From positions 93,263 through 157,262 of the IMG/VR virus record IMGVR_UViG_3300031595_000166: a stretch of DNA of 64,000 bases, one strand, 5' to 3'. The DNA is from a virus. Numbering within the stretch: the stretch's first letter is position 1; the number at the start of each line of letters is the position of its first letter. The translations under genes were made by a program, and so were the position numbers. The notes below the pieces were generated by a model, which worked only from the letters and a program-made list of their open reading frames with translations, ran no database searches and had not been told where the DNA came from. Below are positions 1,945 to 31,896 of the stretch, piece after piece.

Positions 1945-2151
1945 TTATAGGAGGAGAAGTAGTTTCTCGATTTTTTCTTCGGTTAATGGAATTAGTTGAT
2001 CATATATTCTTAGTAAGATTTTTGTTATCTCTGGGTTGCAAACGAAGGTTATGTTTTTCAGGAGGTTGTATACAACCATATATTTGCCATGTGTATGATA
2101 GCAACATGCTGAATTTAGTTTTGTTTCGGAATTACAGATAGGGCAATTCAT
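1945..2151 (-). CDS. Family A small Zn-binding protein with C-terminal KLLLL tail
   Basis: MNCPIC..CYH.HGKY..EEKIEKLLLLL; start moved to the ATGA overlap. Confidence 0.8.
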   Translation of the reverse strand: MNCPICNSETKLNSACCYHTHGKYMVVYNLLKNITFVCNPEITKILLRIYDQLIPLTEEKIEKLLLLL

Positions 2152-2423
2152 TTTAGTAATAGTATTGTGTTGATACGATCCTCGGTTAGCCGAAACCATT
2201 TATTACGTAGAGTTATAAGAAGATGAATACTAATTTTGCCATTTGATATAAATGGATCTTTCACAGAATCATCATACACGGATATTCTATTTGAAACAGA
2301 ATCGATTCTTTGATAGACAATATGATATTTTCCTATTCTATGAGAATGCCACCATACTCTTCCTTGTTGGGCAGTTCCAATAATTAATTGATCACATTCA
2401 GGACAGGGGATAGGATTATTCAT
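2148..2423 (-). CDS. Family A small Zn-binding protein
   Basis: CPEC..HSHRIGKY..EDRINTILLLK. Confidence 0.8.
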   Translation of the reverse strand: MNNPIPCPECDQLIIGTAQQGRVWWHSHRIGKYHIVYQRIDSVSNRISVYDDSVKDPFISNGKISIHLLITLRNKWFRLTEDRINTILLLK

Positions 2424-2626
2424 TTTAGCAATAGCATAATTTCAATTCGATCTTCATCAAGAAAAACATGCCCTTTACAATTTAAAATTGATTCACCCCA
2501 TGGATTATTCGTATAAACATAAGTTCCATGTAGGAAAATATTCTCATCGCGATATGAAACCTCATATTTACCAAGTGTATGCCAATGTGAGGCATAAATT
2601 ATTTCATTGCAGATGGGGCAGTTCAT
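2420..2626 (-). CDS. Family A small Zn-binding protein
   Basis: CPIC..HWHTLGKY..LDEDRIEIMLLLK. Confidence 0.8.
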   Translation of the reverse strand: MNCPICNEIIYASHWHTLGKYEVSYRDENIFLHGTYVYTNNPWGESILNCKGHVFLDEDRIEIMLLLK

Positions 2627-2892
2627 TGTAGCAATAACAATTTCTCTATTCGTTCTTCATCTAATACAACAAAACCATTCAATGTCATCTTAGTTTCCCA
2701 ACCATAACTATCATCCTTGCCAGTGTATTTTAATTGTATTAAAGTTTTCATTTGATCACCATTGCGCGAATCGAATGCAATATATGCAATATACACCACT
2801 CGATACTTACCATATCGATGCAACGTATGACCTTGCCAGCCGATATAACTTTTACATATGGGACACAGAGGAATTTCTATTATATTATTCAT
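2623..2892 (-). CDS. Family A small Zn-binding protein
   Basis: CPIC..HTLHRYGKY..LDEERIEKLLLLQ. Confidence 0.8.
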   Translation of the reverse strand: MNNIIEIPLCPICKSYIGWQGHTLHRYGKYRVVYIAYIAFDSRNGDQMKTLIQLKYTGKDDSYGWETKMTLNGFVVLDEERIEKLLLLQ

Positions 2893-3092
2893 TGTAATAA
2901 CAATAGTTTCTCTATTCGTTCCTCATCCAATAATACTAATCTATCAATTCTAAGTATCCTTTTATTGTTAGGGTATTTTCCAGCCCAAACTGTTACAACA
3001 TTATCAGAATAGTAATATACTCTATACTTTCCAATATCATGAGGGCACATATATCCAATTGGATTATTGCAGATTGGACATCTAGCATTCAT
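2889..3092 (-). CDS. Family A small Zn-binding protein
   Basis: CPIC..CPHDIGKY..LDEERIEKLLLLQ. Confidence 0.8.
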   Translation of the reverse strand: MNARCPICNNPIGYMCPHDIGKYRVYYYSDNVVTVWAGKYPNNKRILRIDRLVLLDEERIEKLLLLQ

Positions 3093-3517
3093 TGTAATAA
3101 CAATAATTTCTCTATTCGTTCTTCATCTAACAATACTAATTTATTTAGAGCCAATATTTTATTACGATTTGAATATTCCCCAGTCCAAACAACAGTCTCA
3201 TCATTATAATAATACACACGATATTTTCCCGCATCATGCTTGCAATAAGCATCAATACCTATACCGCATATAGGGCAATCAACATGAATATCATTACAGA
3301 GTATTTCACAATTCATTTTATTCATTGTAATAAACAATAATTTCTCTATTCGTTCTTTATCAAGAAACACAAGCCTATCTTTTATACATAATACATTTAG
3401 TTCATAAGTAGTATCTACACATATTGTTATAGGATCAATAAGATAATATACAGTATATTTTTCATAAATATGAAAACAACAATCATGTATTTCTTCATTA
3501 CAGATAGGACAGTTCAT
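3089..3517 (-). CDS. Family A tandem fusion of two units created by a 1-nt insertion
   Basis: Two CPIC..H..KY units; the internal junction reads RIEKLLFITMNKMNC where neighbours read KLLLLQ*; one extra A near 3333. Confidence 0.75.
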   Translation of the reverse strand: MNCPICNEEIHDCCFHIYEKYTVYYLIDPITICVDTTYELNVLCIKDRLVFLDKERIEKLLFITMNKMNCEILCNDIHVDCPICGIGIDAYCKHDAGKYRVYYYNDETVVWTGEYSNRNKILALNKLVLLDEERIEKLLLLQ

Positions 3518-3765
3518 TTCACGGGTTCGCAATAGCCTCCGTCAGAATACATTTCACAATACAATGTAATTGTTTTTCCATTAACATTTACAATGCAATT
3601 AGTATCTTCCCCCAATTCAACTGGTAATGTATAGCATTGCACACTCGAACTTCCGGTCAATGATGCACTGATATATTGCATTGCATATGGTATTGCCCAA
3701 TCACTTTTACTTGTATTGTTTTCGCAAGGTACAAAAAACATTGACAAAAGATATAATAATATCAT
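3514..3765 (-). CDS. Cys-rich putative secreted protein
   Basis: Hydrophobic N-terminus, several Cys residues, ATGA-coupled to the next gene. Confidence 0.6.
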   Translation of the reverse strand: MILLYLLSMFFVPCENNTSKSDWAIPYAMQYISASLTGSSSVQCYTLPVELGEDTNCIVNVNGKTITLYCEMYSDGGYCEPVK

Positions 3766-3969
3766 GGTTCATCCGAATATAAAATATCTTGATATTGTTC
3801 TTGTTGTATTCGTATATTACTATAATGCATTGCACAAGAAACCAATGCCGGTATAGTAATGAATGCTACTATGATTGTTAGCAACAATGTTATATGACCG
3901 TTTATGTTTTGCCTTTGTGTGTTAGTTCCCATACCTGCTCATATATCAGGCATGTTGTATTAGTGAAAA

Positions 3970-4203
3970 TTATTTTAGGAGCAGGATTGTGTTGATTCGT
4001 TTCTCATCCAATAAGACATGCCTATCAAAATCCAATACTCTACGCCATACCGTATCAGATTTATCATATACTACTGTAATCTTAGATAGATATCTTATGA
4101 CATATATCCCAGAAACCTCATCATGAATAAACTGATGTTCATCCAAGCATATGGGGCAAGTGAATATATACAGGTCAAGTTCATCGCCTTTGCGTTCTAT
4201 CAT
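3970..4203 (-). CDS. Family A small Zn-binding protein
   Basis: CPIC..H..LDEKRINTILLLK. Confidence 0.8.
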   Translation of the reverse strand: MIERKGDELDLYIFTCPICLDEHQFIHDEVSGIYVIRYLSKITVVYDKSDTVWRRVLDFDRHVLLDEKRINTILLLK

Positions 4204-4424
4204 TTCAATACCAATAGTTTCTCAATTCGTTCAATATCAATCCACCCATCAACACTTAGTATCTCTTCGCCAGTATTATGCTTGTCATTAGAAGAATAAA
4301 CTACGGTTCTATTTTCCTGAAAATAATCATAATATACAATATACTTGCCAAAATAATGACAGCAATATGTAGGATCTTTCATCATCTTATTGCATACAGG
4401 GCATCGCAATTCTAATGTTTTCAT
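4200..4424 (-). CDS. Family A small Zn-binding protein
   Basis: CPVC..CCHYFGKY..ERIEKLLVLK. Confidence 0.8.
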   Translation of the reverse strand: MKTLELRCPVCNKMMKDPTYCCHYFGKYIVYYDYFQENRTVVYSSNDKHNTGEEILSVDGWIDIERIEKLLVLK

Positions 4425-4642
4425 TGTAGTAATAGGAGTTTTTCAATACGCTCCTTCGTATCCAGTAAGATTAACTTTTTCAATCGCAAAATTATGATAT
4501 AATCATCAGCATGATCGCGGGCGAAAACGAATGTTTCTACTGGCTCATCGAAGTAGCGAACAAGATATTTATCTACTTTGTGTTGACAACAATCATTCTT
4601 ATCAAGAACCCGAATACGTTCATTGCATTTCGGGCAGTTCAT
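4421..4642 (-). CDS. Family A small Zn-binding protein
   Basis: CPKC..CQHKVDKY..ERIEKLLLLQ. Confidence 0.8.
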   Translation of the reverse strand: MNCPKCNERIRVLDKNDCCQHKVDKYLVRYFDEPVETFVFARDHADDYIIILRLKKLILLDTKERIEKLLLLQ

Positions 4643-4848
4643 TGTAGTAATAGGAGTTTCTCAATACGCTCTTCATCAAGAAAGATTCGTTTTTTAAAAC
4701 GAAGGATATAATCTCCCGATGTACCAACATATACAATTGTTTTGTATGTAGTCAGTTCATAACATACGACTTCGTATTTGCCTGCTGCATGGACATGAAA
4801 AATACGTAAGTTTTTATTGCATACTGGGCAAGTAGAACTGTTGTTCAT
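4639..4848 (-). CDS. Family A small Zn-binding protein
   Basis: CPVC..HVHAAGKY..LDEERIEKLLLLQ. Confidence 0.8.
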   Translation of the reverse strand: MNNSSTCPVCNKNLRIFHVHAAGKYEVVCYELTTYKTIVYVGTSGDYILRFKKRIFLDEERIEKLLLLQ

Positions 4849-5054
4849 TTTAATAAAAATAATTGTTCAATGCGTTCTAATGTCAATGGGATTATATTTT
4901 TTAGTCTCAATAACAACAGATCTCCTTTGCTATGAAAACTAAAAAACCAAACCATAGTGTTATTGCCCGTAGTGTCATACTCAACATCGTATTTATCTAT
5001 TGCATGCCAGTGGTGCTTACTTTCTAAGACATCAGAACAGATAGGGCAGATCAT
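4845..5054 (-). CDS. Family A small Zn-binding protein
   Basis: CPIC..HWHAIDKY..ERIEQLFLLK. Confidence 0.8.
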   Translation of the reverse strand: MICPICSDVLESKHHWHAIDKYDVEYDTTGNNTMVWFFSFHSKGDLLLLRLKNIIPLTLERIEQLFLLK

Positions 5055-5055
5055 T

Positions 5056-5265
5056 TTATTTCAGTAGGAGGAGTTTCTCAATACGTTCTATTGTCAATAC
5101 GGCTAACTGACCAAACAATCGCAACAATAGATTTTGTATATCAAGATCCCAGACATAAGTATTTGTTCTATTATAGTTAATATAGTTAATATAATACTTT
5201 CCGATCCTATGCCAGCACATAGGATTCAACTTTTCGTGGCAGACTGGGCAAGTGTGTTCTAACAT
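5056..5265 (-). CDS. Family A small Zn-binding protein
   Basis: CPVC..CWHRIGKY..ERIEKLLLLK. Confidence 0.8.
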   Translation of the reverse strand: MLEHTCPVCHEKLNPMCWHRIGKYYINYINYNRTNTYVWDLDIQNLLLRLFGQLAVLTIERIEKLLLLK

Positions 5266-5272
5266 TTTCTTT

Positions 5273-5491
5273 TTATTTCAATAATAGTAATTGTTCTATA
5301 CGATCGAATGTTAGATGAACAAGACCGGCAAAACGCAACACATAACTATTACCATCCCATACATTGGTATTATACCGCTCATGCATAACATATTCTACCC
5401 CATACGATTTCACATCATTATTAACGATATGACTGTGTGGATCGTGGTGGAGATTGTTTCCTAGATCATTGGAACAGATTGGGCAGAGCAT
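5273..5491 (-). CDS. Family A small Zn-binding protein
   Basis: CPIC..HSH..DRIEQLLLLK. Confidence 0.8.
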   Translation of the reverse strand: MLCPICSNDLGNNLHHDPHSHIVNNDVKSYGVEYVMHERYNTNVWDGNSYVLRFAGLVHLTFDRIEQLLLLK

Positions 5492-5500
5492 TTTTTGCCT

Positions 5501-5761
5501 TTATTTGAGTAGTGAGAGTTTCTCAATTCGTTCTTCATCTAACACAACGAAGCCATCAAGCCTGAATAATTCTTTCCAATAAGAAGTAGTAGTATATTTG
5601 AGCCCAAGACTCATTCCTTCAATGTATGAAGTATCATCAGAAAGCTTAATGTAAATTAGTGTTTTGCGTTCCTTCGCCACGTAGACGATTTCATATTTTC
5701 CAAGAACATGTTCGTGCGAAAGATCTCCACTAAAATCAACATTACAGATAGGGCAGATCAT
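5501..5761 (-). CDS. Family A small Zn-binding protein
   Basis: CPIC..HEHVLGKY..LDEERIEKLSLLK. Confidence 0.8.
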   Translation of the reverse strand: MICPICNVDFSGDLSHEHVLGKYEIVYVAKERKTLIYIKLSDDTSYIEGMSLGLKYTTTSYWKELFRLDGFVVLDEERIEKLSLLK

Positions 5762-5762
5762 T

Positions 5763-5990
5763 TTATTTCAGTAGTGAGAGTTTCTCAATTCGTTCATCAT
5801 CCAATACAATCAGACCATCCATAACTAATACTAGATTTGTTATAGGTGGTACTATATCTTGTCCGGTAAAAACCACAGTTTTGTCCATTTCATCCTCAAC
5901 AAGATATCTAATCTGATGACGAACGAGAATATGACGATGATATACATGGAATACTATATGACACATTGGGCATTCACGCGTGTTATCCAT
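5763..5990 (-). CDS. Family A small Zn-binding protein
   Basis: CPMC..HRH..LDDERIEKLSLLK. Confidence 0.75.
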   Translation of the reverse strand: MDNTRECPMCHIVFHVYHRHILVRHQIRYLVEDEMDKTVVFTGQDIVPPITNLVLVMDGLIVLDDERIEKLSLLK

Positions 5991-5995
5991 TGTAG

Positions 5996-6232
5996 TTACC
6001 TCAACAATAATAGTTTTTGCCATCGATCATAAACATTCGGTCGTTTGTTTTTTAGATATGATATAAGTGTCCTATCAGATTCAAAAAAATAGTCAAGAAA
6101 CGAATCATGTAATAGGATCTCTATTAGATCTTCGTCTGATCTTAATGCAAACTCTATTCTGAATATTGTGGGCGTCAAGGCTCCCACACCAAGCACAAGC
6201 AAACCAAGGAGGGCGTATCCAATGTTTTTCAT
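5996..6232 (-). CDS. Family C protein (N-terminal TM) with KLLLL tail
   Basis: SDEDLIEILL..YLKNKRPNVYDRWQKLLLLR; paralog of 19980..20153. Confidence 0.7.
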   Translation of the reverse strand: MKNIGYALLGLLVLGVGALTPTIFRIEFALRSDEDLIEILLHDSFLDYFFESDRTLISYLKNKRPNVYDRWQKLLLLR

Positions 6233-6623: not shown

Positions 6624-7103
6624 TTAAATTAGTATAAGCATTTTCCTAATGCGATCCATTGACATCGTAAAATCCATACCAGATAGATCTATTTTAGAAT
6701 GCTTATTGAGAACATTGATTATGTAATCGTTGTAATCACTCATAGCTGTATATCTTGAACCAAGGTATATGTATCCTTGCTCACGATAGAAAAAATCACT
6801 ATCATCGCAGTCATTAGACATCTTCAATTCAGTTTCAGGATCTGCACCATCAATAAAATCAAAAAGAGTGTTGGCTAATGTTTTAAAATACTTTGCGTTG
6901 CTTTCTATATTGTCTGTGCTAAAATGGATGTCGTAAGAATAATAACTATTCACATCCCAAATAAAATGTGAAACGAATGTTTCTCGATATAGAAACTTGG
7001 GACTATCTTCTGGTGATGGAGGAAAAAGATCACGGAATACACCACGACCAAGCTCATACATTGTATGATTGTTCGTATTGACGAGAGTGTATTCGATACC
7101 CAT
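6624..7103 (-). CDS. Hypothetical protein with tail motif
   Basis: 159-aa ORF unrelated to families A and B but ending DRIRKMLILI. Confidence 0.7.
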   Translation of the reverse strand: MGIEYTLVNTNNHTMYELGRGVFRDLFPPSPEDSPKFLYRETFVSHFIWDVNSYYSYDIHFSTDNIESNAKYFKTLANTLFDFIDGADPETELKMSNDCDDSDFFYREQGYIYLGSRYTAMSDYNDYIINVLNKHSKIDLSGMDFTMSMDRIRKMLILI

Positions 7104-7109: not shown

Positions 7110-7412
7110 TTACCTTTTGATTGAACATTTAGGACAATTGCATCCTAATTTATTAGGACCCCAGTAATCGTTAGTTAGTTCTTCACCGCGCTGGATATCT
7201 TTCAATGCCAGCATATCAAAATTGGGATTGATTGGGCGTATGGTTGGCTCACAAGAATGATTGACTCCGCCACTATCACCATATACATGAAAACCAAGCG
7301 ATGGCGTTTTGATTATAGAACCTTTTGGAATGAAGCATTTAGCGAAGATTCCAATGCCATGGATCTTGCTTGGTAAGTTTTCTTTGTAGTGGAGCCAGTT
7401 ATACGTTTTCAT
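7110..7412 (-). CDS. SET-domain protein (putative lysine methyltransferase)
   Basis: SKIHGIGIFA, NHSCEP, DIQRGEELTNDY and a post-SET-like CNCPKC. Confidence 0.85.
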   Translation of the reverse strand: MKTYNWLHYKENLPSKIHGIGIFAKCFIPKGSIIKTPSLGFHVYGDSGGVNHSCEPTIRPINPNFDMLALKDIQRGEELTNDYWGPNKLGCNCPKCSIKR

Positions 7413-7676
7413 TTATTGAAGGAGGAGTAGTTTCTCAATTCGTTGTTCATCTAATACTACCCAGTCATTCAAGTCTATGACACGAACATATCGACTGTCA
7501 TGAAATAATGTCTGAAAATCAGGATTATCAATCCATACGCTAATGGCTGATAGACCTTCTACTGTATGATAGACTGCTATATATTTACCGAATTTATGAT
7601 CGTGGCTGGAATAACTATCACGGGATGACAAGAAACACTTATGGCATATGGGGCATTGTTGTTCTGTCATAGACAT
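7413..7676 (-). CDS. Family A small Zn-binding protein
   Basis: CPIC..HDHKFGKY..LDEQRIEKLLLLQ. Confidence 0.8.
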   Translation of the reverse strand: MSMTEQQCPICHKCFLSSRDSYSSHDHKFGKYIAVYHTVEGLSAISVWIDNPDFQTLFHDSRYVRVIDLNDWVVLDEQRIEKLLLLQ

Positions 7677-15854: not shown

Positions 15855-16067
15855 TTACTTCAATAGCATCAACATATCTATATACTCTTCATCCAATCGT
15901 TTTGGACTATTCAATGTAATCCTACTATTCTTATCCGAGTAATTTGCTTGTATATAGATACGAACCTCAGTATCCCAATATACGAACACAAGATACTTAC
16001 CAACAGTATGACTGCATGAAGCATAATCATATAGACAGTAATCACAAACTGGACAAGTATAGCTCAT
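15855..16067 (-). CDS. Family A protein, subfamily with SPKRL.EEYID tail
   Basis: CPVC..CSHTVGKY..LDEEYIDMLMLLK. Confidence 0.8.
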   Translation of the reverse strand: MSYTCPVCDYCLYDYASCSHTVGKYLVFVYWDTEVRIYIQANYSDKNSRITLNSPKRLDEEYIDMLMLLK

Positions 16068-16294
16068 TTCAATAACAATAACCCTTCAATACGCTCCTCA
16101 TTCAGCAACGTTAATTTTTTAATACTCAGTAGTAATGGTGAGAGACGTTCTCTTGGATATATGTCAATCAATTCATTGGGAGAATCTACACCATAATAAC
16201 CCACGCCATAATACACATCGTATTTACCATATCTATGAAAACAACACGATGACGATGACAGATACATATGACAATCTGGGCAAGTATAATTCAT
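16064..16294 (-). CDS. Family A small Zn-binding protein
   Basis: CPDC..CFHRYGKY..EERIEGLLLLK. Confidence 0.8.
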   Translation of the reverse strand: MNYTCPDCHMYLSSSSCCFHRYGKYDVYYGVGYYGVDSPNELIDIYPRERLSPLLLSIKKLTLLNEERIEGLLLLK

Positions 16295-16656
16295 TTCAAT
16301 AACAATACCATATCAATATACTCTTCACTCAATCTCTTTGGAGACTTCAATGTTAGTAAAAAACCATTCGTGTCTCCGGCTTTATTAGCTCTATACACAT
16401 TAACATAACCACCAATAAGAACAAACACAACATACTTATTGAGGGTGTGTCTACATCTAACATTTGTCATATCTCTTGAATCAAAAAACTAACTAATCTT
16501 GAATAGGATCTTGCTCCAATTATTGATATAACATTTGACTGACATATCACTGTATATAAGAACACCATATTTACCTATGCTATGATGACAATATAATACG
16601 CTTGGATCAGTATAAGATTCCTTATACATAATGAGATTACAGTTAGGACATTTCAT
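16291..16656 (-). pseudogene. Two family A fragments joined by a probable deletion (16489..16656 lacks the tail; 16291..16470 lacks CxxC)
   Basis: MKCPNC..CHHSIGKY..LFKIS*, then in the same frame FFDSRDMTNVRCRHTLNKY..SEEYIDMVLLLK*. Confidence 0.65.
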
Positions 16657-16895
16657 TTCAATAACAGCATCATATCAATATACTCTTCATCCAAGCGCTT
16701 TGGAGATTTCAATCTCAAAATACGACTGGACCTTATTGTTATTGGGTATAAATATACTCCAACTGCACCGTCGGAAAATGTTATGATATAGTATTTACCA
16801 ATATCATGTTCACACAGAACATCACACAGAACATCAAACTGGTCTTCATCAAAAAAACTTGTATTCTTATCACAGACCGGACAGGTATAACTCAT
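16653..16895 (-). CDS. Family A small Zn-binding protein
   Basis: CPVC..CEHDIGKY..LDEEYIDMMLLLK. Confidence 0.8.
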   Translation of the reverse strand: MSYTCPVCDKNTSFFDEDQFDVLCDVLCEHDIGKYYIITFSDGAVGVYLYPITIRSSRILRLKSPKRLDEEYIDMMLLLK

Positions 16896-17107
16896 TTTAG
16901 CAACAGCATCTTATCGATATAATCTTCACTCAATGTCTTTGGACTATTGAGTGTTAGTATTCGCATTGGGGATGGATCGGTAGTTTTATTATTCCAAACA
17001 TTCACACTTCCGGTATCATAAATATGGACTGAGTATCTACCAATCAGATGATGATGGTATCTTGGCAAGGGCGAGCTATTATTACAGACGGGGCAGATAT
17101 AACTCAT
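16892..17107 (-). CDS. Family A small Zn-binding protein
   Basis: CPVC..HHHLIGRY..EDYIDKMLLLK. Confidence 0.8.
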   Translation of the reverse strand: MSYICPVCNNSSPLPRYHHHLIGRYSVHIYDTGSVNVWNNKTTDPSPMRILTLNSPKTLSEDYIDKMLLLK

Positions 17108-17298
17108 TTTAGCAACAGCATCATATCAATATACTTTTCACTCAATCTTTTTGGAAAAGACAGGTTCAACAAGCATCTTTCTCCATCGTAGATGTAAGCC
17201 TCGCCATCAAAATGAATATAAGCAGTATATAAACCAACGGTATGTTCATGCAGTAGCATCGTTATAATATAATTACAGACGGGACAAGTATAATTCAT
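17104..17298 (-). CDS. Family A small Zn-binding protein
   Basis: CPVC..HEHTVGLY..EKYIDMMLLLK. Confidence 0.8.
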   Translation of the reverse strand: MNYTCPVCNYIITMLLHEHTVGLYTAYIHFDGEAYIYDGERCLLNLSFPKRLSEKYIDMMLLLK

Positions 17299-17501
17299 TT
17301 TAGTAGCAATATCATATCAATATATGTTTCATCTAAACGTTTTGGACGTTCTAGTCTAACAACAAACTTCCCAGTATACCAGATAGAAATCAGACCGTCG
17401 TTATACACATAAGCAGTATATTTACCCAGCCTATGCGTACATGTCTTTTCAATGTATTTTGATTGAAAATCTTCATTGCAGACGGGACAGATATAATTCA
17501 T
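17295..17501 (-). CDS. Family A small Zn-binding protein
   Basis: CPVC..CTHRLGKY..ETYIDMILLLK. Confidence 0.8.
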   Translation of the reverse strand: MNYICPVCNEDFQSKYIEKTCTHRLGKYTAYVYNDGLISIWYTGKFVVRLERPKRLDETYIDMILLLK

Positions 17502-17534: not shown

Positions 17535-18710
17535 ATGCATTACGGTGATTTATACATTCAAGCAAAACTCTTTTACAAGATGGCAGAGGAAACTCTCGAC
17601 ATTCTTCCGGGGAACTTGTATAAATTCGTTATGTACAAAACACAAGGGAAAATTACACCGGAAGTAGCAGATAATTTCGTCGTTGCAAACAAGACAACAT
17701 TGTCTAAACTTAAGTTCGTTGATTGGAGTGGTAATTTCGAAAAGAATGGTAGTAAATTATTTGGTGAAGATGGAGATGGAGAACGATATATGATCTCAAC
17801 TGAATCTACACCGCCGAAGAACTCACATGTCAAACAATCATATATACTGCAAGGGAAACATCCAATACCAACACTTTATGTATTCAGATATGAGCGTGGT
17901 AGCGATGTAGAGTTTCCAAAAGAACTCGGACATTACTTGTTTCTAATGCCAGCGTTATGCGATATGTTCGATGTTGCGTATCCATATTACTTTCAAGATC
18001 CAGATCATATGAATGACTTTGTCAAGTTCGTTCAAGAAAATAAGGCTAAGATTGATTCCATTCGATCTCGATTCCAACACGAGCCAAAACCATTAGGAAG
18101 CGGATCAGATGGCTTTGTTTTTGCGATTGGCAAGGATAGGATATTGAAGATATTCAAACAGCAATTCTCATATCAAGCGGCAAAAGAATCTGCAAACCGA
18201 ATATGGAAACAACACGGCATAGCAGGAACCGAAGCATACATTGATGACATTGGTCAGATTGGAAACTTCGGAGAACACCCGGTATATTATTATATACAAG
18301 AACGAATGGAAACCGTGTTCAATTTCTTGAAGAATGATGTTGACTTCAATGGAAATAGAAGAGACAGAAAAATGTCTCAAATAACAGACTTCATGAAAGA
18401 TATAGCAAAAACTATTAAGAACGATCCAAACTATCCTGCTATATACAGGAACAAAAACAATCCAAGAATTGGTAATGCGATCAGGTCATTAGCGGAGAGA
18501 GTGTATAATCGAATTGTCTATTTTGTAAACGAAGAGATTACTGATGATTTCGCTGGTAAATTACAACCTGATTGGATGCTAAAACTAATTGAAGAGATGG
18601 CTGGAAAACTAATCACGGACAGAATGGATTTGCGATCATATAATGTTGGGATTACAGGGAACGGTTATTTGAGATTCTTTGATCCTGCATTTGATCCAAA
18701 AGAATTATAG
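17535..18710 (+). CDS. Protein kinase-like protein
   Basis: LGSGSDGFVF Gly loop, ILKIF Lys, DLRSYNV catalytic loop, FFDP. Confidence 0.75.
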   Translation: MHYGDLYIQAKLFYKMAEETLDILPGNLYKFVMYKTQGKITPEVADNFVVANKTTLSKLKFVDWSGNFEKNGSKLFGEDGDGERYMISTESTPPKNSHVKQSYILQGKHPIPTLYVFRYERGSDVEFPKELGHYLFLMPALCDMFDVAYPYYFQDPDHMNDFVKFVQENKAKIDSIRSRFQHEPKPLGSGSDGFVFAIGKDRILKIFKQQFSYQAAKESANRIWKQHGIAGTEAYIDDIGQIGNFGEHPVYYYIQERMETVFNFLKNDVDFNGNRRDRKMSQITDFMKDIAKTIKNDPNYPAIYRNKNNPRIGNAIRSLAERVYNRIVYFVNEEITDDFAGKLQPDWMLKLIEEMAGKLITDRMDLRSYNVGITGNGYLRFFDPAFDPKEL

Positions 18711-18929
18711 TAGCAACAGCATCTTTTCAATATACTCTATGTTCAGTTTATCGTATGATAATACTTCAAAAATGAACTGATGACCATAATACACGCGCGA
18801 CACACCATCATCATAAACAACAACAACATATGGACTAATGTTATGCTGGTTCGTACAAAACTTTCTATCTGGACGCTGATTTGATATAATCATATCGTCT
18901 GCATTACAGACCGGACATCTTTTACTCAT
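18705..18929 (-). CDS. Family A small Zn-binding protein
   Basis: CPVC..CTNQH..EYIEKMLLLL. Confidence 0.75.
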   Translation of the reverse strand: MSKRCPVCNADDMIISNQRPDRKFCTNQHNISPYVVVVYDDGVSRVYYGHQFIFEVLSYDKLNIEYIEKMLLLL

Positions 18930-19198
18930 ATCAATAACATCAACTTATCTAAACGATCTTTGCCAATTCTATTTTCAAGATAGGTAATCAGTTGATCTCT
19001 GAACACACCTGCTTTGGTATCTCCAATGAACTCAATGATCTCTATTGTGTCTCTACCGTCAAGAATGATTTTATTACTGCGATCAAACTCTTTTTTTGTT
19101 AGAGGTTCCCATTCATTGAATCCAATACCGGGCTTCAACTTACTACATGCAAGGCTAATATCTAAATGCAGTTCGCCCTTTTTGTTATACCTAAACAT
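18926..19198 (-). CDS. Hypothetical protein with tail motif
   Basis: Unrelated body, ending DRLDKLMLLI. Confidence 0.7.
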   Translation of the reverse strand: MFRYNKKGELHLDISLACSKLKPGIGFNEWEPLTKKEFDRSNKIILDGRDTIEIIEFIGDTKAGVFRDQLITYLENRIGKDRLDKLMLLI

Positions 19199-19979: not shown

Positions 19980-20153
19980 CTACATCAGCAACAATATATT
20001 TTCCCACCGTCTATATACTTGTGGCTTATATTTTTTGAGGTATCTAATGTTTTCGCTACGAGCATCGTACGAGATATAATAATGCTTAGCCCTCAATAAA
20101 TGTTCAATTATTTCTTCGTCGCTTGCAGTTTCAATCCAAGATTTTGTTCCCAT
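19980..20153 (-). CDS. Family C protein with tail (57 aa, not on the ORF track)
   Basis: MGTKSWIETASDEEIIEHLL..YLKKYKPQVYRRWENILLLM*; paralog of 5996..6232. Confidence 0.7.
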   Translation of the reverse strand: MGTKSWIETASDEEIIEHLLRAKHYYISYDARSENIRYLKKYKPQVYRRWENILLLM

Positions 20154-20156: not shown

Positions 20157-20393
20157 TTATCTCAATAGTAAGAATTTTTCAATTCGTTCTTCATCAAGAA
20201 AGACCAACTTACTAAATTGAAGCAGAACAATACTTTGTTCTACAACTAGTAGTACTCTTGTCATATATTCACCGGACATACTTACATTATCGTATAATAC
20301 TTTATATTTTCCTACTAAATGATCGCAATATGGAACACCATTGCCAGACGCAGACATATTGTAATCACAGATTGGGCAATGTAATGTCTTCAT
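20157..20393 (-). CDS. Family A small Zn-binding protein
   Basis: CPIC..CDHLVGKY..LDEERIEKFLLLR. Confidence 0.8.
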   Translation of the reverse strand: MKTLHCPICDYNMSASGNGVPYCDHLVGKYKVLYDNVSMSGEYMTRVLLVVEQSIVLLQFSKLVFLDEERIEKFLLLR

Positions 20394-20587
20394 TTTAGTA
20401 GTAGTAATTTCTCTATGCGCTCTTCATCCAAGAGACACTGTTTTTCAAGATACAATACAAAAATGTTTTCGCACCAAACATTTATCCATTCAACACAATA
20501 ATAGACAGTATATTTGCTATACATATGACGGCAAAAATACTTTGTACTACTCCAATACAATTCTTTATTACAGTGGGGGCAATTCAT
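20390..20587 (-). CDS. Family A small Zn-binding protein
   Basis: CPHC..CRHMYSKY..LDEERIEKLLLLK. Confidence 0.8.
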   Translation of the reverse strand: MNCPHCNKELYWSSTKYFCRHMYSKYTVYYCVEWINVWCENIFVLYLEKQCLLDEERIEKLLLLK

Positions 20588-20634
20588 TTTAGTAGTAGGA
20601 TACACAGGTATTGACTTCGGGACAGTTGAACATA

Positions 20635-21594: not shown

Positions 21595-21840
21595 CTATAT
21601 GAGGAGTAAGAGTTTTTCAATTCGTTCTTCGTCAATAAAAACTAAGTCATTCATTATAGTAATTAGTCTCAATAATCTTCTGTGTTTTTTATTAGAAGTA
21701 AATTCATACAATCTCGTTGTTGTTGAGCCGTCATCGTTCAGATCATAAACTGCTCTATATTTAGAACCAATATAGTGGGCGCACCAATCACGATTGCGAT
21801 CATCTTTTCTCATCACGAAACCACATACAGGACAATTCAT
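21595..21840 (-). CDS. Family A small Zn-binding protein
   Basis: CPVC..CAHYIGSKY..IDEERIEKLLLLI. Confidence 0.8.
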   Translation of the reverse strand: MNCPVCGFVMRKDDRNRDWCAHYIGSKYRAVYDLNDDGSTTTRLYEFTSNKKHRRLLRLITIMNDLVFIDEERIEKLLLLI

Positions 21841-22037
21841 GTTAGCAACAACAGTTTTTCAATTCGTTCTTCATCAACCAGAATCGACCTTGGGAAAAAC
21901 CCTTTGAACTGAAAACCTTTTGATGGTAGCAATTCGAATATAGTCGTACCACCACCAGAATACATAACAAGGTATTTACCAACAAAATGCTCGCAGTAAT
22001 CGTTGTGCATATATAATTTACAGATAGAGCAATTCAT
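21837..22037 (-). CDS. Family A small Zn-binding protein
   Basis: CSIC..CEHFVGKY..VDEERIEKLLLLT. Confidence 0.8.
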   Translation of the reverse strand: MNCSICKLYMHNDYCEHFVGKYLVMYSGGGTTIFELLPSKGFQFKGFFPRSILVDEERIEKLLLLT

Positions 22038-22252
22038 GTTAGCAACAATAGTTTTTCAATTCGTTCCCAACTAATCAACCCACTCATTTTTAGTAGTGGG
22101 CGCACATGCTGTATATCAGTTGAAAACACCTCCGTCGAACAAGAACCATCCGCTCTGTAATCGTAGCATACTTTTATGGATCGATGGTTGTCTGCCCAAT
22201 GATCGCAATAATTAGGAGCGCGTATTTCACGATCACAGATAGGACAATTCAT
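22034..22252 (-). CDS. Family A small Zn-binding protein
   Basis: CPIC..CDH..ERIEKLLLLT. Confidence 0.8.
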   Translation of the reverse strand: MNCPICDREIRAPNYCDHWADNHRSIKVCYDYRADGSCSTEVFSTDIQHVRPLLKMSGLISWERIEKLLLLT

Positions 22253-24794: not shown

Positions 24795-25205
24795 TTATAC
24801 CAACAGCAAAAACTTTTGCAGGTTTTCTTTTCCATAGATGTGTTTGTTATCAAGTTGTGGAATGTAATTGCCATTGATCCAGTATCGAGTTTCTCCATTA
24901 GCAAACTCAGTAGCAGGTCCGTCTTCTCGATGAAGTTTGCCATTGATATACCAGTATTTGCTTCCATTAGCAAGCTCAATAGCAGGTCCGTCTTCTCGAT
25001 GACGATTGTCGTTGAGATACCAGCGTTTGTCTCCATTAAAATACTCAATAGCAGGACCATCTTTCCGATGATATTTGCCATTGAGATACCAATATTTGCT
25101 TCCATCAGCATACTCAATAGCAGGACCGTCTTTACGGTGAAGTTTGCCATTGAGATACCAGTGTTTGTCTCCATTAGCATGGACTTTACATTCAGGCTTA
25201 TTCAT
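24795..25205 (-). CDS. Family B HREDGPA-repeat protein (type 1 C-cap)
   Basis: 22-aa repeats WYLNGKLHR(K/E)DGPAIEYA(D/N)G; ends YGKENLQKFLLLV. Confidence 0.85.
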   Translation of the reverse strand: MNKPECKVHANGDKHWYLNGKLHRKDGPAIEYADGSKYWYLNGKYHRKDGPAIEYFNGDKRWYLNDNRHREDGPAIELANGSKYWYINGKLHREDGPATEFANGETRYWINGNYIPQLDNKHIYGKENLQKFLLLV

Positions 25206-25477
25206 ATCAGGAGTAAAAACTTTTGCAAGTTTTCTTTTCCATAGATATGTTTGTTATCGAGTTGTGGAATGTAATTGCCATTGATCCAGTATCGAGTTTC
25301 TCCATTAGCAAACTCAGTAGCAGGTCCGTCTTCTCGATGAAGTTCGCCATTGAGATACCAGTATTTGATTCCATTAGCATACTCAACAGCAGGACCATCT
25401 TCTCGATGAAGATTGCCGTTTAGATGCCAGTGTTTGTCTCCATTAGCATGGACTTTACATTCAGGCTTACCGTTCAT
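25202..25477 (-). CDS. Family B HREDGPA-repeat protein
   Basis: 2 repeats; ends QKFLLLI. Confidence 0.85.
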   Translation of the reverse strand: MNGKPECKVHANGDKHWHLNGNLHREDGPAVEYANGIKYWYLNGELHREDGPATEFANGETRYWINGNYIPQLDNKHIYGKENLQKFLLLI

Positions 25478-26235
25478 AGACACTGACATGCTGATTCGCT
25501 AAACACTTTTTGTACTCTATAACCATCAATTTCTTCGGTATATGCTTCGCACAGATCCCCAATCTCTTGACTAACAGTATAATAACCAGTATAGTTATCA
25601 GGGTCAGTACTGGACTCAGCTAATTCGTGAGAGATTACTTCATCAACAAAATCATAATTAGAGTTGTATTGAATGATAGCGAAGGTATATCGATTGCTAC
25701 CATATGCCGTATGACTATGGTATCCATTCCAACTATTACTTACCATTGTAGTTGTAATGACATTCGGCGGAAGCATAATGACATAGATTGTATTGTCATT
25801 TGGGAATGGAATAGTTCCAGCGAGAATATTATTGTTGATATCGGCAACAAGAATGCTATCATCAACAGTGATTTGTTTTGAGATTAGATTGAACCCCGAG
25901 TTTACATCAAGTTTAGGTTCGCTATAATGATCAACTGGGTCAAGCGTTCCAGACTCAATACCATACTCGCTCAATCGTTGAAGCACGGTTCCAAGATCAA
26001 GCATATTATGCCACGCGTTTTGATAGTATTGTGGCTCAATGAAGTTAGTGCCAGTCGTCCAATAACTACCATCGTAAATAAAATGCATCTCGGGTGTTTT
26101 TAGAAGCCAACCCGATGGATCATGGCGATAGACTTCATATTGACATGAAGGATTTGGATCAGTGTTTACTACCTGATCAATGTTTCCGGCACAACCAATG
26201 AATGAGAGGAGGATGATTGGGAGGAGGAGTTTCAT
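25474..26235 (-). CDS. Lipoprotein with a zincin-like HExxE motif
   Basis: Lipobox FIGC; GYHS, SHELAESSTDP, EIGDLC. Confidence 0.65.
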   Translation of the reverse strand: MKLLLPIILLSFIGCAGNIDQVVNTDPNPSCQYEVYRHDPSGWLLKTPEMHFIYDGSYWTTGTNFIEPQYYQNAWHNMLDLGTVLQRLSEYGIESGTLDPVDHYSEPKLDVNSGFNLISKQITVDDSILVADINNNILAGTIPFPNDNTIYVIMLPPNVITTTMVSNSWNGYHSHTAYGSNRYTFAIIQYNSNYDFVDEVISHELAESSTDPDNYTGYYTVSQEIGDLCEAYTEEIDGYRVQKVFSESACQCL

Positions 26236-26247
26236 TTTGGTGCTTAT

Positions 26248-26276
26248 ATAGTAAGCATCCGCGAGTCGGCTGTCAA
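26248..26276 (-). promoter_or_regulatory. Sigma70-type promoter
   Basis: TTGACA-N17-TACTAT. Confidence 0.75.
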
Positions 26277-26323
26277 CCGGTATGGAGGTGTAGGTAAATC
26301 ATTAAACGTAAGGGACTAAGTAG

Positions 26324-26646
26324 TGGTCGATGTGGGAGTCGAACCCACACTCCGGTTAAGGAACCTGATCTTCGTCATAGACACTTACTTTCGTAAGCCG
26401 CAACATTTGTTGCTTGCTATGCTGGACTATGCCTTTCCCATGATCAATTATTTGATTTTAGGGACTGCCCGTCTAGTCTCTACACCTTCCCCAATAATAA
26501 ATTGGGGCTTGGCTCGGCGTTGTCATATGCATATTGCATTTAGAGTTTCACCGAGTTTGAGCAGTTCTACATTCTAAGTTTCCTTAGACGCACTCAATTT
26601 TATTATACGCTGAGCCAGGCGCTTCTGCCAATTTAGCCAATCGACC
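26324..26646 (-). tRNA. tRNA-Leu(CAA) interrupted by a group I intron (exons 26612..26646 and 26324..26372)
   Basis: GGTCGAT/ATCGACC acceptor, CCTGG-CTC^AAGA-TCAGG anticodon arm, long variable arm, GTGGG-TTCGACT-CCCAC T arm. Confidence 0.88.
26373..26611 (-). ncRNA. Group I self-splicing intron (IC3-like, 239 nt, no ORF)
   Basis: Core elements AAACTCGGTGAAAC, ACAACGCCGAGCCAAG, GTGTAGAGACTAGACGGG, GGCATAGTCCA; terminal G. Confidence 0.88.
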
Positions 26647-26706
26647 ATAACAATAAGTTAAGAAAAAAGAAAAATGCTAAGCTAAGAAAATCAATCTAAT
26701 TTAGTA

Positions 26707-28601
<1,895 letters not shown>

Positions 28602-28648
28602 AGTTTAGTTTCCTTTTCAGTTTTTTGTTAGTAATTTACTGTCCCCAT

Positions 28649-28677
28649 AATGTAATCATGGAGCAGTGTCTTGTCAA
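28649..28677 (-). promoter_or_regulatory. Sigma70-type promoter
   Basis: TTGACA-N17-TACATT. Confidence 0.75.
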
Positions 28678-29018
28678 TGTAGTCAGATGTAGGCGTTATG
28701 CCAACTGATCCACAGTGAAACTTGTTGAAAATTGTGCGTTATACCACTCAACCAATAGAGCAGCGCTGTCTCGGAACTTAAGATTCTGATCCTGAGCCTT
28801 TTGCATTACTGCAAGTGCCGCTGGTGTTGCGACTGGTGCAGAGTCAAGACCGTTATTCATCACGAACTCAATAAGAACATTTGGGTTCGTTCGAATGTAT
28901 GTTAGTTGTGCGAGATGTTCTTCGTTTGTAAGGTTAGTAATTTTCAGATCCATTTTCGTTTCTCCTTTTTTGATGTTGTTTGTAGTACCATTTTTCTGAT
29001 TTGAATAATCCTCTTCAC

Positions 29019-29384
29019 TTATAGCAGTAATAATGTTATTGCAAGTTTCTCTTTACCATAGATTCGTTTGTTATCGAGTTGTGGAATGCGTTTATCATTG
29101 ATATAGTATTCAGTTGTTCCATCAGAACACTCAATAGCGGGACCATCTTCTCGATGACATTTGCCATTGAGATACCATTCTTTGTATCCATTAGCATACT
29201 CAATAGCAGGACATGTCAATCCCGTTTCGGGATTGATGTCTTCTCGATGACGTTTGCCATTGAGATACCAACATTTGGTTCCATCAGCATACTCAATAGC
29301 AGGTCCATTTTCCCGATGAAGATTGCCATTGAGATACCAGCGTTTGGTTCCATTAACATCAATTTTACATTCAGGCTTACTCAT
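29019..29384 (-). CDS. Family B HREDGPA-repeat protein
   Basis: Contains the INPETGLTC insert; ends KLAITLLLL. Confidence 0.85.
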   Translation of the reverse strand: MSKPECKIDVNGTKRWYLNGNLHRENGPAIEYADGTKCWYLNGKRHREDINPETGLTCPAIEYANGYKEWYLNGKCHREDGPAIECSDGTTEYYINDKRIPQLDNKRIYGKEKLAITLLLL

Positions 29385-29743
29385 ATTAGTAGTAGTAATT
29401 TTTGCAAGTTTTCTTTACCATAGATACGTTTGTTATCAAGTTGATGAATGTATTTGCCATTGATATAGTAGTAAGTTCTACCATCAGCAAACTCAACAAC
29501 AGGTCCGTCTTCTCGATGAAGATTGCCATTGAGATACCAAGTTTTGGTTCCATCAGCATCCTCAATAGCAGGTCCGTCTTCTCGATGAAGCTTGCCATTG
29601 AGATACCAAGATTTATTTCCATTAGCATACTCAATAGCAGGACCATCTTCTCGATGAAACCTGTCATTGATATACCAATATTTGTCTCTATTTTTGTAGA
29701 GTTTGTAATATGGCTTGCCAAGTAGTTTGTTTAGCCAGTTCAT
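29381..29743 (-). CDS. Family B HREDGPA-repeat protein
   Basis: NWLNKLLGKPYY N-cap; ends QKLLLLI. Confidence 0.85.
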   Translation of the reverse strand: MNWLNKLLGKPYYKLYKNRDKYWYINDRFHREDGPAIEYANGNKSWYLNGKLHREDGPAIEDADGTKTWYLNGNLHREDGPVVEFADGRTYYYINGKYIHQLDNKRIYGKENLQKLLLLI

Positions 29744-30036
29744 ATCAGTATCAGATACTTTTGCAAGTTTTCTTTTCCATAGATATGTTTGTTATCGAGT
29801 TGTGGAATGTAATTGCCATTGATCCAGTATCGAGTTTCTCCATTAGCATACTCAATAGCAGGACCATCTTCCCGATGAAGTTTGCCATTGAGACACCAGT
29901 ATTTGTCTCCATTAGCATACTCAACAGCAGGCATCGTCAATCCAGTTTCTGGATTGATTTCTTCTCGATGCCATTTGCCATTGAGAAACCAGCGTTTGTT
30001 TCCATTAGCATCAATTTTACATTTAGACTTATTCAT
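29740..30036 (-). CDS. Family B HREDGPA-repeat protein
   Basis: INPETGLTM insert; ends QKYLILI. Confidence 0.85.
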   Translation of the reverse strand: MNKSKCKIDANGNKRWFLNGKWHREEINPETGLTMPAVEYANGDKYWCLNGKLHREDGPAIEYANGETRYWINGNYIPQLDNKHIYGKENLQKYLILI

Positions 30037-30521
30037 ATCAGTATCAGATACTTTTGCAAGTTTTCTTTTCCATAGATGTGTTTGTTATCAAGCTGACAGA
30101 TGTGATTACCATTGATCCAATATCGAGTTCTTCTATCAATGTATTCAACTGCTGGACCATCATCATTATGAAGTTTGCCATCTAAGAACCATCGTTTGGT
30201 TCCGGTATTATACTCAACAATCAATCCATCTTCTCGATTAAGTTTACCATTGAGATACCATTCTTTTGTTCCATCTCCAAGCTCGATAGCTGGACCATCG
30301 TCTCTATGAAGCTCGTTATGTTGATACCAATATTTATCTCCATTAGCAACAACAACAACAGCGGGTCCATTTCTGCGATGAATCTTATTATTCATATACC
30401 AGATTTTAGTTCCGTTAGGAAACTCAATAGCCGGACCATCTTCGCGATGACGCTTATCATCAACGCGCCAATGTTTGACTCCGTAAAAATCAATTCTGAA
30501 TTGATGAACCCCCGTCTCCAT
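30033..30521 (-). CDS. Family B HREDGPA-repeat protein (diverged)
   Basis: 5 repeats; ends QKYLILI. Confidence 0.85.
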   Translation of the reverse strand: METGVHQFRIDFYGVKHWRVDDKRHREDGPAIEFPNGTKIWYMNNKIHRRNGPAVVVVANGDKYWYQHNELHRDDGPAIELGDGTKEWYLNGKLNREDGLIVEYNTGTKRWFLDGKLHNDDGPAVEYIDRRTRYWINGNHICQLDNKHIYGKENLQKYLILI

Positions 30522-30544
30522 GACGCTACATACCTTTGTTTGTA

Positions 30545-30784
30545 TTATATGACATCGAAGCCTCTATCATCATACAAGTATTCACAGCAAGGATACTTAC
30601 GCCCCAAGTCATCAACATCTTCCTCACCAGAATCTGGGTTAATATTACAATTACAGCCTCTTTTTATACAAGCATCGCAATAATAACGATCTTTTTCTTT
30701 CCTACCACTCGGGGCATACATCCATATTGCAAGTTCAGAACATTCGCAACAAGTATGCTTTGGGATGTAATCAACTACCTTCAT
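30545..30784 (-). CDS. Cys-rich putative metal-binding protein
   Basis: CCEC..CDAC..GCNCN..PCCEY. Confidence 0.65.
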   Translation of the reverse strand: MKVVDYIPKHTCCECSELAIWMYAPSGRKEKDRYYCDACIKRGCNCNINPDSGEEDVDDLGRKYPCCEYLYDDRGFDVI

Positions 30785-31040
30785 TTTATTCTCTTAGCGA
30801 TTATAGTATCGCGTCTATTTGTGTAGTGCATAATCATACTATTACAATAATCGATTGCTGCATCGCTTGCTGCAATGTATGTTTCATATAATGCATTCTC
30901 ATAATGACCGCCATCATCATCTGAATCTACATCATACCAAAAATGCGGATCTCTGGTATAACCATTGTCAAGTGTGGCTTCTTTTACTTCGCCATCTTTG
31001 ATGTAGAACCAATGTTTTTTCATTGCGTTTTCCTACGAAC

Positions 31041-31069
31041 AATCTAAGCACGCCAACGCGTCGTGTCAA
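31041..31069 (-). promoter_or_regulatory. Sigma70-type promoter
   Basis: TTGACA-N17-TAGATT. Confidence 0.75.
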
Positions 31070-31081
31070 GTGCCAGGCGGA

Positions 31082-31546
31082 CTACAATAACAACAAGGCG
31101 GCTGCAAGATTCTCTTTACCATAGATAGTTCTGTTGTCTAATTTCTGAATGTATTTACCATCAATCCAGTATTGCTTTATACCATTCGGATTCTCAATGG
31201 CTGGACCATCATCTCTATGCCTTAGATTATTCTTATACCAATATCCAGAACCATCAGGATATGTCATAGCAGGAAGACTCAATCCAGTTTCAGGATCAAT
31301 TTCATCTCGATGAGTTTTGCCATGCATATACCAATCTTTTGATCCGTCATTCCATTCAATAGCTGGAAGCAATAGACCAGTTTTTAGATCTACTTCAAAA
31401 CGATGACATTGATTATTGATATACCAGCATTTTGTTCCATCCACGAACTCAATGGCTGGACCATGTTCATTATGAAGCTTGCCATCCAACTTCCAGCGCT
31501 TATCACCATACTCATCAATTACACAAACAGGTCGTTTAATACCCAT
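31082..31546 (-). CDS. Family B HREDGPA-repeat protein (diverged)
   Basis: IDPETGLSLPA inserts; ends LAAALLLL. Confidence 0.85.
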   Translation of the reverse strand: MGIKRPVCVIDEYGDKRWKLDGKLHNEHGPAIEFVDGTKCWYINNQCHRFEVDLKTGLLLPAIEWNDGSKDWYMHGKTHRDEIDPETGLSLPAMTYPDGSGYWYKNNLRHRDDGPAIENPNGIKQYWIDGKYIQKLDNRTIYGKENLAAALLLL

Positions 31547-31590
31547 ATCTTTCCAGTAAAATACCCAGCTAAGGGCGTGATATTATTATA

Positions 31591-31896
31591 CTAAATTAGG
31601 AGCAATGCTGCTGCGAGTTTATTTTTACCGTAGATATACTTGTTATCTAACTGCTGGATACGATTATCGTTGATCCAGTATTGAGTTTTTATTCCACCAC
31701 CAGCGAACTCAACGGCTGGCCCATCAATTCGATGCCGCCGATTATTGATGAACCATGACTTGAATCCGTAGTTATCAACATATGCTGGAAGAGATAGACC
31801 AGTTTCAGGATCAATTTCATCACGATGGAAGTGTCGATCTCTTCCTTCCAGTTGCCAATATGTTGAAGTTGGAGTGGTTATTTTGATTGATTTCAT
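31591..31896 (-). CDS. Family B HREDGPA-repeat protein (diverged)
   Basis: Ends LAAALLLI. Confidence 0.8.
   Translation of the reverse strand: MKSIKITTPTSTYWQLEGRDRHFHRDEIDPETGLSLPAYVDNYGFKSWFINNRRHRIDGPAVEFAGGGIKTQYWINDNRIQQLDNKYIYGKNKLAAALLLI

Follow-up and report, generated by a model that had tools for sequence, protein, structure and literature searches.

The closest described system to the one reported here is that of Bacillus phage G, which carries about 35 copies of a zinc ribbon (gp32 type), proposed to be perhaps transcription factors or structural DNA binders (Iyer et al. 2021, PMC7824862); our search of the literature for the tail motif discussed below and for similar families returned only that remark on phage G. 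Here, we describe a large family of proteins of about 65-100 amino acids (aa), with a putative zinc site, a constrained core, a highly variable surface and a conserved C-terminal tail, which is encoded in tandem arrays in a stretch of 64,000 nucleotides (hereafter the window, whose positions are used throughout unless stated otherwise). The window comprises bases 93263-157262, i.e. the last 64 kb, of a 157,262-bp virus record of IMG/VR (IMGVR_UViG_3300031595_000166), which is a fragment of a very large (huge), uncultured phage, with a CheckV completeness of 32%. The family fills about 7% of this 157-kb fragment, and it combines a confident and simple predicted fold with the lack of a relative in curated libraries. 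Huge phages are full of unexplained small genes, among which this family offers a tractable entry to the diversification of host interactions and to the reading of a C-terminal tag.

In the genome of phage G, we located the zinc module at 29 places, mostly in one array at 353-371 kb. This array (L026, 352.5-371.5 kb; L025:26153-28126) is made of tandem proteins of ~200 aa, each with a CPxC module and its own conserved helix at the C-terminus. The two systems resemble each other in that both belong to jumbo phages, comprise tens of tandem copies and are built on a module with a CPxC start, a second Cys knuckle, beta strands and a conserved C-terminal helix. They differ in the second knuckle, which is CxNxC followed by Tyr in phage G whereas it is [C/H]xH here, in the tail motif, and in the location of the phage G module at the end of ~200-aa proteins. 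A comparison of the two families with hhalign covers only 12 columns, those of the CPxC knuckle (probability 73%), and our family profile scores 10-11 bits on the open reading frames (ORFs) of phage G. Since only the knuckle aligns, we regard the expansion described here as being of the same kind as that of phage G, without claiming membership of the same family. As judged from sequence, it appears to be a second expansion of a zinc module in a huge phage, either unrelated to that of phage G or related to it beyond detection, and one that is coupled here to a genome-wide tag.

The family was also compared with well-known small zinc folds. In classical C2H2 fingers (C-x2-4-C-x12-H-x3-5-H), which adopt a beta-beta-alpha fold, both His are on the helix, whereas the family has a C-x2-C-x8-30-[C/H]-x-H spacing, with the final ligand pair on strand 1 of the model; moreover, no Pfam C2H2 model reaches its cutoff and the matches in the PDB span ~20 residues. 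Zinc ribbons carry two CxxC knuckles on hairpins and a three-stranded sheet, and the first knuckle of the family fits this description; its second pair, however, is arranged i, i+2 on a strand and not in a CxxC turn, the zinc-ribbon models of Pfam reach E 0.03-0.2 with single members only, and none of the fold matches is significant. YacG, an inhibitor of DNA gyrase, is similar in its size (~65 aa), its single zinc knuckle and its action through protein binding, as proposed for the units, but it is a single-copy host gene whose fold was not matched in our fold searches, and the NCBIfam YacG model touches one of 34 units with an E of 0.009, far below a meaningful score.

Inventory and architecture of the family

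A family hidden Markov model (HMM), iterated from 12 seeds across all 1,087 ORFs of the contig, converged on 41 ORFs that contain 42 domains, almost all of which have per-domain E-values of 1e-10 to 5e-26. Thirty-six of the domains are in the window. Every unit is on the minus strand and the layout is that of operon-like arrays: 16 units at 1945-6023 (the main array, which appears in the ORF listing as a chain of 64-104-aa genes of one plan), 1 at 7413, 8 at 15855-17501 (2 of which are remnants), 1 at 18705, 2 at 20157-20605, 3 at 21595-22252, 2 at 43822-44393 and 3 at 45827-47132. An earlier reading of the window, made from its sequence alone (the sequence-only reading), had counted about 37 units in clusters; the 36 units found with the HMM stand at those places, while the one at 37.7 kb is doubtful, with only 9.5 bits. 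The same reading had most genes chained by ATGA overlaps between stop and start codons, as is indeed the case since 26 of 40 tails end in xxA-TGA. The units are as follows (E-values are those of the family HMM).

1945-2151, minus: unit 1 (domain 17-83 of ORF 1945-2199, E 3e-19; the longest ORF extends to 2199, the likely start being the Met of MNCP at 2151)
2148-2423, minus: unit 2, 91 aa (E 4e-16)
2420-2626, minus: unit 3, 68 aa (E 4e-24)
2623-2892, minus: unit 4, 89 aa (E 3e-20)
2889-3092, minus: unit 5, 67 aa, the unit used for folding (E 5e-26)
3089-3532, minus: units 6 and 7, joined into a single ORF of 147 aa (two HMM domains; the upstream unit has no stop codon)
3514-3932, minus: two small genes inside the main array that do not belong to the family (ORFs, no HMM match)
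3970-4203, minus: unit 8, 77 aa (E 4e-17; in the alignment, its fourth ligand position is not His)
4200-4424, 4421-4642, 4639-4848, 4845-5054, 5056-5265 and 5273-5491, minus: units 9-14 (E 8e-18 to 2e-22)
5501-5761 and 5763-6023, minus: units 15 and 16 (E 2.5e-21 and 2.6e-17)
7413-7676, minus: solitary unit, 87 aa (E 7e-20)
15855-16067 and 16064-16294, minus: two units of the second cluster (HMM)
16291-16656, minus: deletion scar (partial HMM matches, columns 1-41 and 15-69)
16653-16895, 16892-17107, 17104-17298 and 17295-17501, minus: four units with the cluster's own tail variant (HMM; clade support given below)
18705-18929, minus: solitary unit, 74 aa (E 9e-13)
20157-20393 and 20390-20605, minus: two units (HMM)
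21595-21840, 21837-22037 and 22034-22252, minus: three units (HMM)
37707-38036, minus: divergent ORF of 109 aa whose membership is doubtful (CPxC, CxH and an end resembling the tail)
43822-44127 and 44124-44393, minus: two divergent units (E 4e-13 and 9e-14)
45827-46036, 46033-46347 and 46926-47132, minus: three units (HMM)

The ORF at 3089-3532 is a fused pair, since the stop between units 6 and 7 has been lost; the two units are separate genes in strains L014 and L016 and are fused in L015, L017, L018, L020 and L021. Of the two genes at 3514-3932, one encodes a protein of 83 aa that is rich in Cys and begins with a hydrophobic stretch, and the other a protein of 56 aa with a single hydrophobic span; genes of these two sizes are called at corresponding positions in five related loci (L014, L017, L018, L021 and L022). 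A distant array (L024, 1410-1816) likewise has two small hydrophobic proteins in its middle. In the deletion scar of the second cluster, the remains of one unit's N-terminal part (16489-16656) and of another's C-terminal part (16291-16470) share a reading frame and are separated by a stop; strains L011 and L012 hold at this position both full units plus three between.

The anatomy of the family was deduced from an alignment of 197 members, 42 from the contig and the remainder metagenomic. The fixed scaffold CPxC...[CH]xH...GKY that the sequence-only reading had recognized holds across this alignment, and so do four metal ligands: both Cys of CPxC are present in 100% of the members, the third ligand is C (68%) or H (28%) and the fourth is H (97%), such that the ligand columns are 100%, 100%, 96% and 97% conserved. 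The ligands are followed by G-K-Y, by alternating conserved positions in strand 2, by a V-[Y/W] pair in strand 3, by Leu positions in strand 4, and by the tail LDEERIEKLLLLK, after which come one residue and the stop. The remaining positions are near random, with column entropies of 3.5-4.2 bits, and two loops vary in length, one between the knuckles and the other between strands 3 and 4. The intervening residues had been described as divergent and aromatic-rich, of which the divergence is confirmed whereas the content of aromatic residues is barely raised (11.3% in the units versus 9.9% in long ORFs). The net charge is mixed, with a median isoelectric point (pI) of 6.35, and 19 of the 42 units are acidic and 12 basic.

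AlphaFold2, run on unit 5 (2889-3092) with 34 paralogues as the alignment, gave a model with a predicted local distance difference test score (pLDDT) of 95.6, in which strands are formed by residues 15-20, 23-28, 33-37 and 44-49 and a helix by residues 57-66. The predicted fold is a four-stranded antiparallel sheet, one face of which is covered by the C-terminal helix. Each protein would bind one zinc ion through the Cys pair of CPxC and the [C/H]xH on strand 1. Conserved columns alternate with variable ones along strands 1 and 2, from which we infer that the sheet face under the helix and the zinc site is buried and that the opposite face is open and variable. Variation is nearly unrestricted on the open sheet face and in three loops, of which two differ in length between units, whereas the zinc site, the covered face and the helix stay constant. 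The prediction of a zinc homodimer for one unit scored 0.00, a value that counts neither for nor against self-association.

Relatives, unit turnover and selection

The sequence-only reading had not recognized the family, and neither did the libraries. Single units and 34 aligned units gave scattered matches at the level of the knuckle and below cutoffs in Pfam, PHROGs, NCBIfam and PADLOC; in PHROGs, no family was matched by more than one of the 34 members (best E 0.003), and the PADLOC scan returned a single chance match. A profile search of the PDB by sequence found short matches to C2H2 or RING knuckles only. Foldseek with the predicted structure, a check that had been suggested along with the original description, yielded no match to a characterized family, the best E-values being 0.54 against the PDB and 0.019 against BFVD, neither of them significant. 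Nothing stood out in a wide fold search with VIA-align (best Z 4.7), in which an unlisted family could still match. No match was obtained by tblastn of one unit against 50,697 phage records, none of the 148 stretches matched in a protein-pattern scan of IMG/VR is a relative, and a degenerate DNA pattern for the tail hit IMG/VR once, by chance, in a metagenome-assembled genome of a giant virus.

Relatives were found by an exhaustive profile search of 1.84 billion representatives, which matched 282 clusters (clustered at 50% identity) at E <= 0.001 and 110 at E <= 1e-10. One long repeat protein is a false positive, and the other listed matches are 53-141 aa long. All ten clusters whose provenance was looked up are metagenome-only, and the family is restricted to this huge-phage lineage. 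Distant members are also arrayed: 12 of 16 consecutive genes of L024 are members, and a 6.3-kb contig of the Joint Genome Institute is a run of ~20 small genes.

The paralogues within the contig diverged long ago: identity reaches 65% in the closest pair, with medians of 42% for best matches and 32% across pairs, and terminal branches of the unit tree have a median length of 0.83 changes per site. Units of one cluster tend to group together on this tree, with 16 changes of cluster membership versus 23.7 in shuffles, none of 200 of which was as low. The cluster at 15.9-17.5 kb, which had been attributed to local duplication on account of its own tail variant, places 6 of its 7 units in one clade with a Shimodaira-Hasegawa-like approximate likelihood ratio test (SH-aLRT) support of 97, in agreement with that attribution. 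Local duplication thus happened, but long ago.

Comparison between strains tells how the arrays change. Near-identical strains from several samples keep the order of the 16-unit array at 96-100% identity, and orthologues across samples are 92-100% identical. Copy number, which the sequence-only reading had proposed to compare across related genomes, nevertheless differs between loci with conserved flanks (8 versus 16, 8 versus 2 and 12 versus 8 units). The main array of L032, a relative with flanking proteins that are 85-100% identical, comprises 8 units, of which six are orthologues (92-99%) and two are divergent, and L010 has 7-8 units. L027 has eight units where the window has two (20157-20605), six of them at most 49% identical to any unit here, and at the 18.7-kb slot it carries a different, 35%-identical unit instead. 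The 16-kb cluster has 12 units in L011 versus 8 in the window, and L015 and L029 have three extra units in a cluster just upstream of the window. Turnover is therefore the presence, absence and replacement of whole, old and divergent units, in the manner of cassettes. The gene accordion that had been proposed does not hold as recent amplification, given that the closest paralogues are so far apart and that near-identical strains keep the array order.

Other genes are found among or beside the units of some strains. In L011 (587-1369), an extra unit and a 180-aa DUF7448 gene are located between units that are adjacent in the window (~16650), with flanks that are 99-100% identical. In L021 (1-517; ERZ27245619), beyond the counterpart of window ~15.4-15.6 kb, a TnpB/Cas12f-like gene (OrfB_IS605, Cas12f1-like TNB) lies beside the array at a place where strain L020 has family units; this gene may be a mobile-element insertion.

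Selection was assessed between orthologues as the ratio of non-synonymous to synonymous differences per site (pN/pS). Pooled over whole genes, and leaving out the L010 comparison (eight substitutions in 234 sites of neighboring genes), the ratio is 0.17-0.54 for the family versus 0.09-0.27 for its neighbors, indicative of purifying selection. When the differences between strains in 26 units were sorted by column class, each being counted once, the scaffold and tail columns had 19 synonymous and 7 non-synonymous differences (pN/pS 0.10), the variable columns 8 and 31 (1.00) and the insert columns 2 and 7 (0.96), and the contrast between scaffold and variable columns was significant (Fisher p = 1.7e-5). 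The core is strongly constrained. For the surface, neutrality and diversifying selection with an average of one are the two possibilities, and the data do not separate them on account of the low counts and the close relatedness of the strains. Positive selection, for which the sequence-only reading had called for a test, is thus not demonstrated, since a pN/pS of about 1.0 at the variable columns fits neutrality and diversifying selection equally well.

The C-terminal tail

Among the ORFs of the contig with a length of 40 aa or more, 115 have an ending of four aliphatic residues followed by no more than one other, and family members account for only 38 of them. The other carriers are a MORN-like repeat family, several further families and singletons, all with the same acidic-Lys-aliphatic ending; the ORFs at 5996-6232, 6624-7103, 18926-19198 and 19980-20153 of the window are among the tail-bearing ORFs. 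The MORN-like family has 12 copies in the window, at 24795-36233 and 43112-43456 on the minus strand, and its AlphaFold2 model (pLDDT 95.6) forms the tail as a terminal helix (residues 88-97). It shares with the zinc family the strand, the array style, the C-terminal helix tag and a beta-rich body, but the body is a different one and the copies are much more alike (52-84% identity). MORN repeats are hairpins of ~23 residues (G-x-W/Y...G), and the alignment of the two families with hhalign is confined to the tail region, with the last 31 columns only and a probability of 16%. Because unrelated families carry the same ending, the tail is a genome-wide C-terminal tag that is common to them and not family-specific. 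It had been listed as part of the family's own signature, which is contradicted by the aliphatic-ending ORFs that are outside the family and by its presence in the MORN-like one. In the zinc family, the tail also appears to be part of the core.

All six Leu codons are in use at the Leu positions of the tail, which shows that the constraint acts at the protein level. On this basis, we rejected the idea that the tail is a DNA-level signal for coupling or recombination. A role as a type 1 secretion signal, considered in view of a TolC/HlyD-like gene set nearby, was dropped by argument alone: we saw no ABC exporter, and such a system is poorly suited to cytoplasmic proteins folded around zinc.

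Possible functions and neighboring genes

Our working hypothesis, which we hold tentatively and with slightly less than an even chance of being right, is that the members of the family form a binder repertoire, in which the core is constant, the docking helix is common to all and the surface is unconstrained or diversifying. The tiny zinc-stabilized scaffold would present a variable face and loops that contact differing host or phage targets, and the constant helix would give every member one docking or address function, common to the other families. The genes of an array would be co-transcribed and translationally coupled, and differences in repertoire between strains would arise as whole units are lost, gained and replaced. 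A diversified binder repertoire had already been suggested by the sequence-only reading; the conserved core, the near-random residues of the other sheet face and of the loops, and the unit content that differs between strains speak for it, and positive selection, as discussed above, does not. The anti-defense or host-takeover role proposed at the same time may apply to such binders. If the units are specific binders, a 65-aa zinc scaffold would be of interest for protein engineering.

Several points weigh against a repertoire of binders. The pN/pS of ~1 at the variable sites is the plain neutral expectation, such that the surface may not matter at all, and the contrast between column classes comes from small substitution counts in strains that are not independent. 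The helix is packed on the sheet in the model, hence it could be a mere part of the core and not a docking element. No target, partner or tail reader was identified in this analysis, and the libraries searched hold no fold or sequence relative of established function. As to expression, promoter-like counts were no higher than the shuffled expectation and are uninformative on timing; terminator-like sites, although somewhat more numerous than expected in the first region (11 versus 4.1 +/- 2.4), were given no weight.

The evidence from the tail could be accommodated by a generic, tail-dependent job to which the surface is irrelevant, the main alternative to the binders, which we consider rather unlikely but which deserves serious attention. 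The units would then be small, stable, zinc-folded carriers of the shared helix, acting either as cargo for one place (e.g. packed in the capsid) or as competitors or decoys that saturate the machine reading the tail; many copies would provide dose or robustness, and the variable face would drift. Such carriers would account for the ratio of ~1.0 at variable and insert columns next to 0.10 at scaffold and tail, for the minority share of the family among aliphatic-ending ORFs (38 of 115) and the tails of unrelated families, for the confidently modeled terminal helix of the MORN-like family, and for the loss or swap of units between strains without visible compensation. They would account less well for the retention, as separate genes, of old paralogues (median 32% identity) whose orthologues are 92-100% identical, since a dose effect would be achieved more easily with fewer or recent copies; furthermore, the loops vary in length as those of binder scaffolds do, and no capsid or protease link was found. 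The turnover of units and their damage, exemplified by the fused pair and the deletion scar, would also be expected of a decaying or selfish filler, i.e. a relic family with no present function that hitch-hikes in operons, and over half of the columns evolve as if neutral. We nevertheless deem this very improbable, because purifying selection is strong at the scaffold and tail columns (0.10), intact ORFs with coupled starts make up nearly all of the units, and the family persists as 282 clusters at 50% identity in many samples.

That the units bind nucleic acids, in a sequence-specific or structural manner, as small zinc-finger regulators or DNA-coating proteins, has a precedent in the proposal made for the zinc ribbons of Bacillus phage G (Iyer et al. 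2021, PMC7824862), and it is in line with weak profile matches to C2H2 fingers over the knuckle, with Tyr and Trp on the sheet and with the 12 of 42 basic units. The mixed charge (median pI 6.35, 19 of 42 units acidic), however, speaks against nucleic-acid binding as a uniform property, the ligand spacing and the location of the last two ligands on a strand clash with the C2H2 fold, the profile comparison with the phage G family is limited to the 12-residue knuckle, and the fold searches matched no known DNA-binding fold. We therefore regard this explanation as improbable, although less so than a filler.

The repertoire of binders could be one part of a larger arrangement, an extension that we put forward as unlikely. 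In such a modular adaptor system, ~100 small proteins with unrelated bodies would plug into a single putative hub through one C-terminal helix, and the zinc family would be the largest class, supplying strain-variable recognition surfaces; candidate hubs are a host protease or unfoldase, a capsid or compartment receptor, or a phage scaffold. The ankyrin proteins of poxviruses join a variable target-binding part to a C-terminal PRANC/F-box-like domain and exist as many paralogues whose copy content varies between strains. The zinc family resembles them in its many paralogues, its variable, putatively binding part, its one shared C-terminal element and its strain-variable content, and differs from them in fold, host domain and size, the shared element being here a 13-residue helix, with no ubiquitin system. 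If true, the adaptor system would be to viruses of bacteria what the gene families of substrate receptors are to large viruses of eukaryotes.

The fragment carries several other recognizable genes. Upstream of the window, the N-termini of long ORFs look like those of nicotinamide adenine dinucleotide (NAD)-dependent DNA ligase, glutamyl-tRNA synthetase and NAD-salvage enzymes. A DUF7275 protein, relatives of which occur in 730 records of cultured phages, was identified in the window by a profile match. Malate synthase (Pfam E 2e-97) and isocitrate lyase (E 1e-80), both enzymes of the glyoxylate shunt and here phage-encoded, are on the minus strand at 31928-33496 and 38920-40182. At 47306-53341, also on the minus strand, a ResIII/SNF2-like helicase (749 aa) adjoins an Eco57I-type methylase-like protein (543 aa) in a region with further possible methylase genes, which may be a phage-borne restriction-modification or anti-restriction module. 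Finally, the minus-strand gene at 7110-7412, between the solitary unit at 7413 and the main array, encodes a 100-aa protein with a weak SET-domain match in the tables of related contigs.

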